Below, piece after piece: positions 59,073-63,589 of a stretch of 64,000 nucleotides of DNA. The translations under genes were made by a program, and so were the position numbers. This DNA comes from a virus. The DNA lies in the IMG/VR virus record IMGVR_UViG_3300037205_000062, positions 64,001 to 128,000 of that record. One strand, 5' to 3'. The notes below the pieces were generated by a model. That model was given only the letters and a program-made list of their open reading frames with translations, ran no database searches and was not told the DNA's origin. The stretch's first letter is position 1; every line of letters starts with the position of its first letter.

Positions 59073-59146
59073 GCGGTATTAGCACAAAAGTAGTGCATTT
59101 GCTTGCCAAGCAAGATAAGTCGGAGCATTACCGACATACCGCTCCA
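59073..59146 (+). tRNA. tRNA-Gly(GCC)
   Basis: Cloverleaf with CCA; T-loop AGCATTA. Confidence 0.85.
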
Positions 59147-59490
59147 TTTTCGTGACTGAATTAAAACGATACTGTTATCGTTAAAGTTTTAAGCAGGTGA
59201 AGAATCTGTTTAAGTTGCCATGAAATCTTAGTAAATAAGGTAGTCAGAAACTTAGATTGGCCAATCGAAGTCTATGATGTAAGCTATTACTTATAGAACA
59301 TAACGGATAGCTTTTTGCTGCGACGGCGGCGAGTGACTGAAATAAAATTGAAAAGATGTAATGCTTGGGCGTAGAAAGGAATCGCCCCGATTTAATTTAT
59401 CTTTAGACGAGATAGGCAAATGTCCTATTTACGAAAAGTGCAGGGAAAGCTACCTAGAAAGCTTGACATGATGGAGAGACATCTTTTCAT

Positions 59491-59565
59491 TGTAAGGTAT
59501 CATAACAGTAATGAATTTGCCTGTTAAGCAAAATTATGCAGGGGCGGAACCTGCCCTTACAGCCA
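59491..59565 (+). tRNA. tRNA-Asn(GTT)
   Basis: Cloverleaf with CCA; T-loop GGCGGAA. Confidence 0.85.
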
Positions 59566-59684
59566 AATCATAAAGATAGTTATCCCTCTTATTTATAAGA
59601 TTACTCGAAAACGAGAAACAAAATAGGTGATGCTTGAGTGGGATTAAAATGGATAATATAGATTAATTTCTGTATTGTTCACTA

Positions 59685-59774
59685 TGCTGCGTGAAGGAAA
59701 ATAGCCTTGTCGCCCTCATAAGGCGAATACTGAAAATGCGTATAAGTGGATAAAGACCCGCCGTTCAGCAACCA
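59685..59774 (+). tRNA. Atypical tRNA(CAT), Met/Ile2
   Basis: TCGCC-CTCATAA-GGCGA arm, long variable arm, irregular T arm and acceptor, ACCA end. Confidence 0.6.
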
Positions 59775-59837
59775 TTTAGATAATCCTTGTGCCTTAATAA
59801 CTTATAGAAAAATCGGCAACGGCAAGAATTAAAAAAC

Positions 59838-59909
59838 ACACCCATGTTTAAGTAAACAATTTCGTCTCCAAAACGAAAAATCAAGGAGCGTTACCCTGTG
59901 GGTGTGCCA
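59838..59909 (+). tRNA. tRNA-Trp(CCA)
   Basis: TTCGT-CTCCAAA-ACGAA; compact D arm; GCCA end. Confidence 0.8.
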
Positions 59910-59916
59910 TTAATTT

Positions 59917-59994
59917 ATATGCGCTAAGTTCGTTTGAACCTTTTAACTTAAATGTTAAATTAGCCTAGACGTTAAACTCGTCTTGCGTATTCCA
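59917..59994 (+). tRNA. tRNA-like element with irregular anticodon arm (TAA or TTA)
   Basis: ATATGCG/TGCGTAT acceptor + TCCA; AGACG-TTAAACT-CGTCT T arm. Confidence 0.5.
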
Positions 59995-60088
59995 TTTTAC
60001 CAAACTCCGAAAAGCAGTTCTAAGAGAACCACTTAGAGGTTCATCCGATGGTTCGGGATGCGGCTGTTTGGTGATTAATTTAGAAAAT

Positions 60089-60179
60089 GGTCGGTGTCCT
60101 CATTGCGAATCTGTAAAATTCGTCCTTACAACAAAAATGAGAAGTTAGGTCAATGGAGCGTTACCATCACTGACTACCA
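60089..60179 (+). tRNA. tRNA-Tyr(GTA) lacking a D hairpin
   Basis: GGTCGGT/ACTGACT-ACCA; CGAAT-CTGTAAA-ATTCG; long variable region. Confidence 0.75.
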
Positions 60180-60233
60180 TGTAATTAAAAATATTATAAC
60201 AATCAGTAAAATCTTTTGCCTAATTTATCTAAT

Positions 60234-60321
60234 GGAAGTCGTAAGTATCAGAGTTGATACGACGCACTTGAAATGCGTATGTGCCTACGGGCATGGGGGG
60301 CAGAACCTCACACTTCCGCCA
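60234..60321 (+). tRNA. tRNA-Ser(TGA) with Sec-like D arm
   Basis: ACGCA-CTTGAAA-TGCGT, long variable arm, GCCA end. Confidence 0.8.
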
Positions 60322-60324
60322 TTT

Positions 60325-60525
60325 ATGACATTAAAAGAAGAAAATCAATGGTTTACTAATCATAAAAACCTTTGTAAATATAGTAGAAAACCAGAAAAAA
60401 TTGACGAATCTGTTGCATGTGATTATTGTGGCACAGAAAATACTTATCCTTGGTTAGTTTGTGAAAATCCAAATTGCTATGAAGTTGTAGCATTAGAAAA
60501 ACAAAGAAGAAAAAATAATTTCTGA
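60325..60525 (+). CDS. Small Zn-finger-like protein
   Basis: CDYC...CENPNC; start at ATG 60325 after tRNA-Ser. Confidence 0.5.
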   Translation: MTLKEENQWFTNHKNLCKYSRKPEKIDESVACDYCGTENTYPWLVCENPNCYEVVALEKQRRKNNF

Positions 60526-60631
60526 CAGGCGGTAAATAAAGGGGTAAAAACATCATAGGTTTAGGCTATTTAGATAGTCAGAATCCTTCCAATTATTTAG
60601 GAAGTCCTTGAAAAATAGCCATTAATTTATT

Positions 60632-60707
60632 GGGGGTGTGGCTCGACAAGCAAGGCACCACGTTTGCAACGTGTTTTATGCAGGAGCGATACCTGTCACC
60701 TCCACCA
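60632..60707 (+). tRNA. tRNA-Ala(TGC)
   Basis: G3.U70 acceptor pair, TGC anticodon, ACCA. Confidence 0.88.
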
Positions 60708-60829
60708 TTTTTGATAAGATTTGACGCGTGGACTACTTCGTAAGATGATAAAGTCCGAAGCTGGAAACGGCGAGAAGCCTGTTAAAACCAAAAGAGAGAT
60801 ACTTTTGTGTCCCTTATCAAATTTTTAAT

Positions 60830-60903
60830 TCCCGTTTCGTATAGAAGCATTACCTGCGCCTTTGGAGCGTAAGAAGGTGGAGCGTTACCATCAACGGGAG
60901 CCA
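60830..60903 (+). tRNA. tRNA-Gln(TTG)
   Basis: Cloverleaf with GCCA. Confidence 0.85.
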
Positions 60904-60942
60904 AAAGATTTATTTAGCATTAAAAATTTGTCAACATAAGTT

Positions 60943-61021
60943 GGGATATAGTCCGAAGTAGTCGAGGTACTTTCCTGTCACGAAAGAAATCTAACGGATG
61001 CGAGTTCCGTATATCCCGCCA
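60943..61021 (+). tRNA. tRNA-Asp(GTC)
   Basis: Cloverleaf with GCCA. Confidence 0.85.
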
Positions 61022-61033
61022 ATTTAAATATAT

Positions 61034-61815: not shown

Positions 61816-61860
61816 TTTTAATCTTGACATTACAATAAGAATCCACTAATATAGTTATAT

Positions 61861-61937
61861 CGGAATGTAGCGTAGGCTGGTAACGCGTCTGCTTTGGGAG
61901 CAGAAGATCGTGAGTCCGAATCTCACCATTCCGACCA
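61861..61937 (+). tRNA. tRNA-Pro(TGG)
   Basis: Near-canonical cloverleaf. Confidence 0.92.
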
Positions 61938-61940
61938 TGT

Positions 61941-62189
61941 ATGTTTGAAAAGTATATTACTCATATTTTTGAGAATAATGAGGAAGCAGAAAATGAATCA
62001 GCAAAAATTATTCATTCAACAGCTAGTAGTATTAGAGGATGGGAACAGTATCAATCTTTTTTAAAAGATAAAAAAGAAAACGATACATTAGTTTGGTTTG
62101 ATTATAGTTATCCAATGGCTTCCAGAAAAGGATTGGGTATTCTAAGAAACGGTAAAATAATTTCTCATTGTATTTTTATAATGAGTTGA
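61941..62189 (+). CDS. Hypothetical protein
   Basis: 82-aa ORF filling the gap between tRNAs. Confidence 0.55.
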   Translation: MFEKYITHIFENNEEAENESAKIIHSTASSIRGWEQYQSFLKDKKENDTLVWFDYSYPMASRKGLGILRNGKIISHCIFIMS

Positions 62190-62192
62190 TAC

Positions 62193-62284
62193 GGCTTCAA
62201 GATGTAAAGTGCATGGGGGGACTTATAATCCCTATAATCGGCAGATTGCCGTTCTGGACGGTGCAATTCCGTATGAAGCTACTA
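62193..62284 (+). tRNA. tRNA-Ile(TAT) with long variable arm, 3' ACTA
   Basis: GGGGA-CTTATAA-TCCCT; CGGCA-GAT-TGCCG extra arm. Confidence 0.7.
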
Positions 62285-62295
62285 ATGGTTTTAAT

Positions 62296-62371
62296 GGCCT
62301 CGTAACTCAATTAGCAGAGTGTTCACCTGATTAGTGAAATGTTGGGGGTGCAAGTCCCTTCGAGGCTACCA
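62296..62371 (+). tRNA. tRNA-Ile(GAT)
   Basis: Cloverleaf with ACCA; unusual U37. Confidence 0.82.
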
Positions 62372-62386
62372 TTAAATATTTTTAAT

Positions 62387-62524
62387 ATGGACGAAACGAT
62401 TACTATTTCCAAAGAAGAATATGAGGAACTTTTAGAAGATGCTAAATTCATGCGTGCATTAGAAGCCGCAGGAGTAGATAATTGGGAAGGATACGAATAC
62501 GCCCAAGATTTATTGGGAAAATAA
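62387..62524 (+). CDS. Small conserved phage protein
   Basis: MDETITISKEEYEELLEDAKFMRALEAAGVDNWEGY. Confidence 0.65.
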   Translation: MDETITISKEEYEELLEDAKFMRALEAAGVDNWEGYEYAQDLLGK

Positions 62525-62530
62525 TTTAAT

Positions 62531-62606
62531 GTTGCCGAATACAAAGAGACGAGTAAGTAGTCCTTCAAACTACTCCTAGCAGGTGCGAGTCCTGTCGGCA
62601 ATACCA
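62531..62606 (+). tRNA. tRNA-Glu(TTC)
   Basis: GTAGT-CCTTCAA-ACTAC (C33), ACCA. Confidence 0.75.
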
Positions 62607-62611
62607 TTTAT

Positions 62612-62686
62612 GCATATGTAACTCAGAGGCAGAGTATTGCACTTCCAATGCAAAGGTCGAGATTTCAAAATTCTCCATATGCTCCA
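62612..62686 (+). tRNA. tRNA-Gly(TCC)
   Basis: Cloverleaf, T-loop TTCAAAA, TCCA. Confidence 0.88.
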
Positions 62687-62791
62687 ATTTCCAAGACGGA
62701 ATCGTTTCTGGCGTTGCCAGACTAGAAATAGCTAAGTTACAATGTTTCGGTTTTAAAGACAAAATAACTACACCTGTCCTTGGAAATATTT

Positions 62792-62866
62792 GCTTCGTAA
62801 GCATAAAAAGTGATGCACTTGATTTGTATCCAAGATAAGCCAGAGCGTTACTGGCACGAAGCTCCA
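62792..62866 (+). tRNA. tRNA-Thr(TGT)
   Basis: Cloverleaf with TCCA. Confidence 0.85.
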
Positions 62867-62943
62867 ATTTTTTTAGTTTTAAAAAAACAATTAATTTTCA
62901 AATAATACTTGACACAATTTTAAATATTTGTTAATCTTTAAAT

Positions 62944-63381
62944 ATGACTAAAGTATCTATTGAAGCTGTTTTGGAGGGTTTGAAGCGGGCGGGAGTAGCA
63001 GCCAAAGAAGTTGGAGTAACATTGAATTATTTGGAAAAGGTTGCTCAAGAAGAACAAGCTCAAAAGGACGCTGAAAAGCTTCCGACTCAAAAAAATGAAT
63101 ATGGTGTTATTTTATTTGATGTAGATGGAGTAATATCTGGAAAAGATTTTTCAGCAGTTGTTTACCAAATTCCGCAGGGTGATGACCATGGTTTAGTTTT
63201 GGGCAAAATTTCGGAATCTATACGAGAACAAATGGCAGCAGCAAAACGTAAAAAATTTACAATTGATACACTTGGCGCGGCAATTCAAAGCTTAAAGCGT
63301 AAGTTTATTAAAGATAAAAATGTTAATTTGAAGACTAAAAATCCCGTGAGAGTATTGATAAGTAATAATAAATTAGTTTAA
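62944..63381 (+). CDS. Hypothetical protein
   Basis: 145 aa after promoter 62909-62937. Confidence 0.65.
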   Translation: MTKVSIEAVLEGLKRAGVAAKEVGVTLNYLEKVAQEEQAQKDAEKLPTQKNEYGVILFDVDGVISGKDFSAVVYQIPQGDDHGLVLGKISESIREQMAAAKRKKFTIDTLGAAIQSLKRKFIKDKNVNLKTKNPVRVLISNNKLV

Positions 63382-63416
63382 TATGCAAACATGAAGATAG
63401 AAGAATAATAATTTAA

Positions 63417-63493
63417 GCGTTCGTAGCTAAAATAGCCAAAGCATTCGGCTTTTAACCGAAATAGTGTGGGCGCAAGTCCCACCGAGCGCACCA
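63417..63493 (+). tRNA. tRNA-Lys(TTT)
   Basis: Cloverleaf with ACCA. Confidence 0.88.
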
Positions 63494-63515
63494 TTTTGTT
63501 AAAAGTTTTTAATTT

Positions 63516-63589
63516 GCGCTACAAGCATTAAAATGATGCAAAAGGTTCTTACCCTTTAGAACACGGCGTATTACCGTGGTGGCGCACCA
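63516..63589 (+). tRNA. tRNA-Lys(CTT)
   Basis: Cloverleaf with ACCA; T-loop CGTATTA. Confidence 0.85.

Follow-up and report, generated by a model that had tools for sequence, protein, structure and literature searches.

The contact between G18 of the D-loop and pseudouridine (Psi) 55 of the T-loop is treated as near-invariant in transfer RNA (tRNA), according to 2006 work as cited in PMC4810234. Here we describe an array of viral tRNA genes in which A18 and G55 are found instead in almost all members. The analysed stretch (the window) comprises 64,000 nucleotides, corresponding to bases 64001-128000 of the IMG/VR record IMGVR_UViG_3300037205_000062, and the part of the array under study spans window positions 59073-63589. 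Like canonical bacterial and phage elongator tRNAs (RF00005), its genes encode cloverleaves with 7-nt anticodon loops, 5-bp T-stems with 7-nt loops, the 19:56 pair, a purine at position 57, a CCA end and the identity elements of aminoacyl-tRNA synthetases (aaRS). Unlike canonical tRNAs they carry A18/G55, vary at base 54 (A, G or C are also found) with base 58 in step, and in some cases have C:G, A:U or U:A as the 19:56 pair; the majority score too low for the Rfam gathering cutoff or escape ARAGORN.

T-loops also occur outside tRNA, in flavin mononucleotide (FMN) and cobalamin riboswitches, ribosomal RNA (rRNA) and RNase P. They follow a YGNRA consensus (UGNRA 89%, CGNRA 11% in one screen) and show "almost exclusive use of adenosine" as the nucleotide intercalating between positions 4 and 5; tRNA was singled out for its U at T-loop position 2, and an rRNA T-loop of sequence GGAAG exists (bioRxiv 10.1101/2022.12.26.521914). 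In the UA_handle study tRNA was described as having a "U-clamp instead of G-clamp", the clamp base being bonded to the intercalating nucleotide (PMC2615604). The array resembles these motifs in the first five T-loop bases (UGNRA or CGNRA), in an adenine suitably placed for insertion between bases 4 and 5, and in a long-range Watson-Crick pair of base 3. It differs from them in that a tRNA houses the module and its D-loop would act as the receptor, and in that AGCRU loops fall outside the consensus.

Among natural bacterial tRNAs, the staphylococcal non-proteogenic tRNAGly species (NP1-3) likewise have UGC or UGU for UUC. They lack pseudouridine, are sparsely modified and form three Gly-only species for cell-wall synthesis through Fem transferases, whereas about 19 isotypes are present here and the change extends to almost the entire decoding set. 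The large tRNA arrays found in phages and bacteria (phage tRNA clusters; L-arrays, PMC8421152) are similar in gene content, with dozens of tRNA genes on one strand, specificities for most amino acids and small open reading frames (ORFs) and HNH genes in between; the published descriptions consulted make no mention of the elbow, and the loops go undiscussed in the L-array paper. Metazoan mitochondrial tRNAs without contacts between D-loop and T-loop also lack GG and T-Psi-C; there the contact is lost, whereas here a covarying replacement is found and 19:56 is kept. Our literature search revealed no description of an A18/G55 elbow in translational tRNAs.

Bases 18 and 55 in the array and in related phages

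The record behind the window is a single-contig IMG/VR virus of 162,911 bp with 31% G+C, rated 79% complete. Its tRNA array lies on one strand, starts at window position 59073 and continues past the window end to about position 135,906 of the genome. A cloverleaf scanner that used only stem pairing and an encoded NCCA, supplemented by hand-parsed matches of a T-arm plus CCA, identified about 35 tRNA genes in total, and 22 tRNA or tRNA-like elements within the span 59073-63589. All 22 combine a 7-bp acceptor stem and a 5-bp T-stem with a 7-nt T-loop, and all but one, which ends in ACUA, have NCCA encoded. The confidently assigned anticodons of the array represent 19 amino acids; the same scan and hand parsing identified no clear tRNA-Met gene in this 79% complete record.

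Position 55 is G in 19 of the 22 elements of the span, U in two (tRNA-Gly(UCC) with TTCAAAA and a tRNA-like element with TTAAACT) and C in one (tRNA-Pro(UGG) with TCCGAAT). Across the whole array, G55 is present in about 31 of about 35 genes. All G55 genes with a readable D-loop have A at position 18, with A-G (or A-C, A-A) in place of G18-G19; within the span this is AG, except for AA in tRNA-Lys(CUU). The D-loop GG is kept only by tRNA-Pro(UGG) (AGGCTGGTA) and tRNA-Gly(UCC) (AGAGGCA). The original prediction, made from the letters of the window, had quoted T-loop and D-loop strings that are all present where it had placed them. Its statements that NGC replaces TTC in almost all tRNAs, that AG takes the place of GG, and that the pyrimidine-55 tRNAs Pro and Gly(UCC) retain GG agree with these counts.

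Bases 54 and 58 fall into the classes U...A (TGCAAGT, TGCAAAT, TGCGAGT, TGCAATT), C...A (CGCAAGT), A...U (AGCGTTA, AGCATTA) and G...G (GGCGGAA, GGCAGAA, GGCAGCA). About half of the G55 T-loops have a base 54 other than U (A, G or C), and base 58 changes alongside. As a set, the genes lack the canonical G18-U55 and U54-A58 contacts and show covarying A18/G55 instead. Position 57 is a purine in 62 of 62 G55 T-loops of this phage and its relatives. The 8:14 pair varies in this phage and its two closest complete relatives: U14 occurs only with A8 or G8 (5/5), A8:A14 eight times and G8:G14 three times. The transfer-messenger RNA (tmRNA) of the phage (window 49869-50254, 74 bits) retains a canonical UUC T-loop.

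For a formal test of the association between positions 18 and 55, relatives were found through the ribonucleotide reductase (RNR) protein, and tRNA arrays were taken from G001 and G004, the closest two among the complete phages (RNR about 60% identical). In G004 the two elbow types are mixed; relatives at a greater distance have mostly canonical tRNAs and one or two with G55. The cloverleaf scanner yielded 121 distinct tRNAs from this phage and its relatives, of which 58 have A/G at 18/55 and 54 have G/U (Fisher 2e-30); the few remaining ones mostly reflect an ambiguous register in a long D-loop. Alignments by MAFFT and by a covariance model place the AG dinucleotide of the D-loop in two registers; we therefore used model-defined loop boundaries, an alignment-free statistic (base 55 compared with the presence of GG at any place in the D-loop) and a rule that anchors the register on the 19:56 pair. 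A covariance model built from 50 of these tRNAs gave 123 matches in twelve loci searched. With the loops of 120 tRNAs of this phage and its IMG/VR relatives delimited by this model, 45 tRNAs combine GG with U55 and 62 combine the absence of GG with G55, leaving 3 + 3 off-diagonal cases (p = 3e-24). Most of the latter are explained by two UAGG D-loops (A18 G19 G20) and by two tRNAs in which G18 is followed by U19 or A19 opposite A56 or U56. The association was also found within G004 alone (table 6/0/1/21, p = 2e-5) and within three mostly canonical relatives, L022, L023 and L031 (table 21/0/2/4, p = 9e-4), and 14 of 22 isotypes are represented by both elbow states. The interpretation offered by the original prediction finds partial support. 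Its compensatory A18-G55 elbow across many isotypes, for which an alignment and covariation test of positions 18 and 55 had been proposed, is supported on formal alignment, within genomes and between orthologues, with 19:56 adding to this.

Pairs of orthologues provide the cleanest examples of the exchange. The tRNA-Phe genes of L025 (ATCTGGTGA/ATCGTAA) and G004 (ATCTAGTGA/AGCGTAA) differ by exactly two bases, and so do the tRNA-His genes of this phage (ATGTAGTA/TGCAAGT) and G004 (ATGTAATA/TGTAAGT), a pair that also counts among the 19:56 exchanges. The 19:56 tertiary pair is present as G19:C56 or swapped to C:G, A:U or U:A. C19:G56 is found in two Leu(CAA) genes beyond the window (T-loops TGGAAGT and TGGAAAT, D-loop AATTACAAG), A19:U56 in tRNA-Lys(CUU) at 63516 (TAAAATG with CGTATTA), and U19:A56, together with G18-U55, in the Arg(CCU) tRNA of G004 (AATCGTATA/TTAGATT). 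Among G55 tRNAs an A-C core of the D-loop accompanies G56 (TGG T-loops) in 4 of 5 cases and C56 in 0 of 52 (p = 1e-5). The distant relative L022, otherwise canonical, encodes on its minus strand (scanner positions 15493-15564, counted on the reverse complement) an amber-suppressor tRNA (anticodon CUA) with AGTAGTT/TGCAATT, that is A18/G55.

IMG/VR was searched with the pattern GGTGCAAGTCC-N11-CCA (G55) and with an A55 version as control, and the cloverleaf context of the matches, not their totals, was scored. Among the matches listed, 59 of 119 G55 hits lie in a full cloverleaf, 49 of these 59 with AG and no GG, compared with 0 of 119 for the control; the base composition of the G55 cloverleaf contigs among them is very varied. 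By these counts the elbow is a widespread phage tRNA design. The original prediction had recognised a real sequence pattern; its spread beyond this phage, the several 54:58 classes and the covariation of 19:56 had escaped it.

Structural reading and possible purpose of the elbow

We propose that the array consists of functional tRNA genes with an alternative elbow, A18/G55 for G18/U55, which we consider probable from their sequences; the structural reading of this elbow is well supported by covariation. The T-loop would change from U54-U55-C56-R57-A58, the U-clamp, to N54-G55-N56-R57-N58, the largest class of which corresponds to the G-clamp type known from RNase P, rRNA and riboswitches. In the D-loop, the base inserted between 57 and 58 would change from G18 to adenine, the usual intercalator of non-tRNA T-loops, and the next D-loop base would still form a Watson-Crick pair with base 56, also where base 56 changes. 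In three dimensions, A18 would be stacked between 57 and 58 and bonded to G55. As the 19:56 pairing is maintained, the L-shape and the flat outer 19:56 face would be kept; this face is the contact site of RNase P, the L1 stalk, L5 and T-boxes.

The YGNRA consensus is found in 19 of the approximately 31 G55 T-loops of the genome by hand count (UGCAA, UGCGA, CGCAA, UGGAA). The UGCAA/UGCGA/CGCAA class, together with A18, would therefore represent the common non-tRNA solution placed in a tRNA. Outside the consensus are the AGCRU (7), GGCRG (5) and CGUAU (1) T-loops. The GGCRG class recalls the GGAAG T-loop of rRNA, whereas the AGCRU class (A54...U58) is without listed precedent and appears to need a separate explanation.

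The original prediction had suggested that the elbow possibly removes the need for TruB and TrmA or evades host defences that target tRNAs. As U55 is absent, TruB has no substrate in G55 tRNAs, and TrmA has no site in the AGC, GGC and CGC T-loops, where U54 is missing; the UGC class keeps U54. The most likely pay-off would be an elbow that folds without host modification and goes unseen by proteins reading U54-U55, including defence nucleases that cut the T-loop. A nuclease of this kind has recently been described: CbCash, a type III CRISPR-associated Schlafen nuclease active against phages, cuts tRNAs 5' of U55, and single substitutions of U54 or U55 abolish its cleavage (PMC13462974).

The elbow might, tentatively, be an adaptation to a tRNA-directed conflict, either as an escape from nucleases that recognise U54-U55-C56 or as a means to spare the phage's own set while host tRNAs are destroyed. 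The requirement of CbCash for U54/U55 makes defence evasion plausible by analogy, and the elbow recurs across many unrelated viral contigs. With its own tRNAs for at least 19 amino acids, the phage could moreover dispense with those of the host. On the other hand, searches of the 79% complete genome record for domains of Schlafen, RtcB, CCA-adding enzyme and TruB brought up no gene for a nuclease, for RNA repair or for tRNA modification (nor was a Terminase_6N domain found), and the ORFs within the array carry HNH, Dam or AAA domains or lack an assignment. Pyrimidine 55 is retained in two tRNAs and in the tmRNA, whose UUC T-loop fits poorly with a general need to hide this loop. As a purpose, evasion of host defences or a marking of the phage tRNAs as self is in our view speculative. 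Speculative too is the fuller picture, in which the phage would possess a near-complete private tRNA set with the elbow as a mark of self, blind to TruB and TrmA, resistant to T-loop nucleases and able to survive or permit the destruction of host tRNAs. A modification-independent alternative fold would be the safer statement.

If the alternative elbow is confirmed, the tRNA elbow has at least two evolutionary solutions, and whole tRNA sets can dispense with Psi55 and often with 5-methyluridine (m5U) 54. Gene finders tuned to GG and TTC would undercount phage tRNAs, here finding about a third. G55 tRNAs would be ready substrates for assays of T-loop-reading enzymes and defence nucleases, and their elbow may provide a scaffold for tRNAs protected from modification or cleavage by the host. 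The notable features of this array are the near-complete replacement, the 19:56 swaps, the 54:58 classes, the two-base exchanges between orthologues and several rebuilt architectures.

Integrity of the G55 tRNA genes

The 18 regular genes of the span form 18-21 of 21 possible pairs and are cloverleaves with stems of 7 bp (acceptor), 4 bp (D), 5 bp (anticodon) and 5 bp (T) and normal 7-nt anticodon loops, and every regular member has an encoded CCA. By the established E. coli rules of aaRS identity, the expected elements are present: G3:U70 in Ala, G-1/C73 in His, U73 in Gly and Cys, C1:G72 in Pro and U1:A72 in Gln. The Arg tRNAs listed have A20 right after position 19, with the exception of the Arg(UCU) of G001 (AATTACTA, T20); this placing of A20 also backs the assigned D-loop register. 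Intact stems, encoded CCA and identity elements argue against decay and decoys, and suggest that the G55 tRNAs are aminoacylated and used in translation.

Standard scanners miss most of these genes, as the original prediction had anticipated. ARAGORN with default settings reported 7 of the 22 elements in the window and 13 tRNAs in the whole genome, and Rfam RF00005 at its gathering score (29 bits) 8 in the window. With lax filters Rfam reported 9 elements of the span (36-67 bits), the remaining 13 going unreported. Lowered ARAGORN thresholds with introns allowed produced 106-292 calls genome-wide, mostly noise, and served as pointers only.

Several observations weigh against working tRNAs with a single, common elbow. 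The only published natural G55 tRNAs that we found, those of staphylococci, are barred from translation (PMC7826273, PMC13443448). In yeast SUP4, where the T-loop doubles as the B box of the RNA polymerase III promoter, G18A was rescued by U20G only, and almost all tertiary-pair mutants were dead (PMC4117946). Four further elements of the span are irregular in architecture, and a first Glu(CUC) copy beyond the window may be decaying, given its weak T-stem and missing CCA. When independent contrasts were drawn on a tree from which the loop columns had been left out, about five of the six well-supported ones point in the same direction and none in the opposite one (p about 0.06); this tree-controlled test is underpowered because 45 alignment columns resolve few branches. 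As AGCGTTA and CGTATTA lie outside YGNRA, no single structural model holds for all classes.

The staphylococcal example raises the alternative that the G55 genes are decoys or donors for a non-translational process. Its tRNAGly species have TGC or TGT where TTC is usual and lack pseudouridine, and the four irregular members of the array could be seen in this light. We nevertheless consider it unlikely, since the set covers about 19 amino-acid specificities with matching identity elements and normal anticodon loops, and since G55 and U55 versions substitute for each other isotype by isotype in the relatives with no canonical copy beside them; a decoy would need neither the preserved 19:56 pair nor the A20 of Arg tRNAs. 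Decaying pseudogenes of an AT-rich genome (31% G+C), in which loop changes reflect drift, might be expected to include irregular members and copies such as the Glu(CUC) gene. This explanation is very improbable: in addition to the intact stems, the encoded CCA of all regular members and the invariable purine 57, the changes are coordinated at 18/55, 19/56 and 54/58 rather than scattered, compensatory change is seen, and the elbow is kept between phages whose RNRs are only about 60% identical. Weakest is the notion that the covariation stems from picking positions 18/19 in D-loops of variable length, in which no single column corresponds to position 18 and the anchor rule itself relies on complementarity to base 56; it is scarcely credible given that the alignment-free statistic returns the same association, also with model-defined loops, that the register is fixed in 7-nt D-loops, that A20 of the Arg tRNAs follows the assigned position 19, and that orthologues of identical loop length differ at the two sites only.

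Features of the array and its genome

The elements of the span are listed below together with the putative transcription signals upstream of the array.

Features of the tRNA array and its upstream region (window positions)
Feature	Position	Strand	D-loop	T-loop	Remarks
Terminator-like hairpin	58818-58840				directly before the candidate array promoter
Candidate sigma-70-like promoter	58876-58904	+			TTGACA-17-TAGATT (consensus scan); upstream of array
tRNA-Gly(GCC)	59073-59146	+	AAAAGTA (A18 G19)	AGCATTA (A54 G55 C56 ... U58)	U73, G1:C72, C2:G71
tRNA-Asn(GUU)	59491-59565	+	AACAGTA	GGCGGAA (G54 G55 ... G58)	G73; missed by ARAGORN default
tRNA-Trp(CCA)	59838-59909	+	shortened D-arm (GTTT AAGT AAAC)	AGCGTTA	G73
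tRNA-like	59917-59994	+	TCGTTTGAAC	TTAAACT	acceptor and T stems perfectly paired; loops can be read as G18-U55 and U19-A56; unusual anticodon loop (AAATGTT, no U33); ends UCCA
Tyr(GUA)-like RNA	60089-60179	+		AGCGTTA	acceptor and T arms normal, no 5' D hairpin; CTCATT/AATGAG helix around anticodon arm; D-loop-like AAGTTAGG just 5' of T-arm
tRNA-Ser(UGA)	60234-60321	+	ATCAGAGTTG	GGCAGAA	long variable arm
tRNA-Ala(UGC)	60632-60707	+	GACAAGCA	AGCGATA	G3:U70
tRNA-Gln(UUG)	60830-60903	+	AGAAGCA	AGCGTTA	U1:A72, G73
tRNA-Asp(GUC)	60943-61021	+	AAGTAGT	TGCGAGT	G73
tRNA-Arg(GCG)	61034-61110	+	AATTAGATA (A18 G19 A20)	TGCAAAT	
tRNA-His(GUG)	61198-61273	+	ATGTAGTA	TGCAAGT	G-1 opposite C73
tRNA-like	61279-61362	+		TGCAAGT	acceptor stem common with tRNA-Ile; long irregular middle part
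tRNA-Leu(UAG)	61539-61622	+	AATAGAAG	TGCAAGT	long variable arm
tRNA-Val(UAC)	61740-61815	+	AACAGCAT	GGCAGCA	
tRNA-Pro(UGG)	61861-61937	+	AGGCTGGTA (G18 G19), canonical type	TCCGAAT (C55)	C1:G72; own promoter-like site 61824-61852 (consensus scan); ~82% identical to tRNA-Pro of phiKZ-like phages
tRNA-like, UAU anticodon loop	62194-62285	+		TGCAATT	long variable arm, irregular middle (hand-parsed); 3' end ACUA, not ACCA
tRNA-Ile(GAU)	62296-62371	+	AATTAGCA	TGCAAGT	
tRNA-Glu(UUC)	62531-62606	+	AAGAGACG	TGCGAGT	C at position 33
tRNA-Gly(UCC)	62612-62686	+	AGAGGCA	TTCAAAA	only fully canonical elbow
tRNA-Thr(UGU)	62792-62866	+	AAAAAGTG	AGCGTTA	A8
tRNA-Lys(UUU)	63417-63493	+	AAATAGCCA	CGCAAGT (C54 G55)	
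tRNA-Lys(CUU)	63516-63589	+	TAAAATG (A18 A19)	CGTATTA (G55 U56)	A8 with U14

The layout of the Tyr(GUA)-like RNA is shared by an element with a CCU loop and TAGATAGATAAG beyond the window (genome 135655-135731; L049:13655-13731). Also beyond the window, a gene pair of Glu(CUC) and Leu(CAA) is duplicated (L049:8684-8843 and L049:10792-10955, corresponding to genome 130684-130843 and 132792-132955).

A blastn search of the array against INPHARED phages revealed no relative of this phage and matched only tRNA-Pro and HNH fragments. Pieces of an HNH homing-endonuclease-type ORF flank tRNA-Leu(UAG) on both sides (window 61420-61740), so that this tRNA looks placed inside, or between parts of, an HNH gene; the region matches HNH genes of other phages by blastn. 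Pfam analysis of ten ORFs within the array detected only Dam, HNH, AAA_28 and a weak zinc finger, the rest remaining without assignment. Elsewhere, the genome contains phage-type replication genes for the DNA polymerase III alpha subunit (with an intein/HNH insert), DnaB, RNR and an exonuclease. On the minus strand of the window (33514-34719), a RuBisCO large-chain catalytic domain (Pfam E = 2e-33) is encoded by an ORF that lies among sugar-modification genes.

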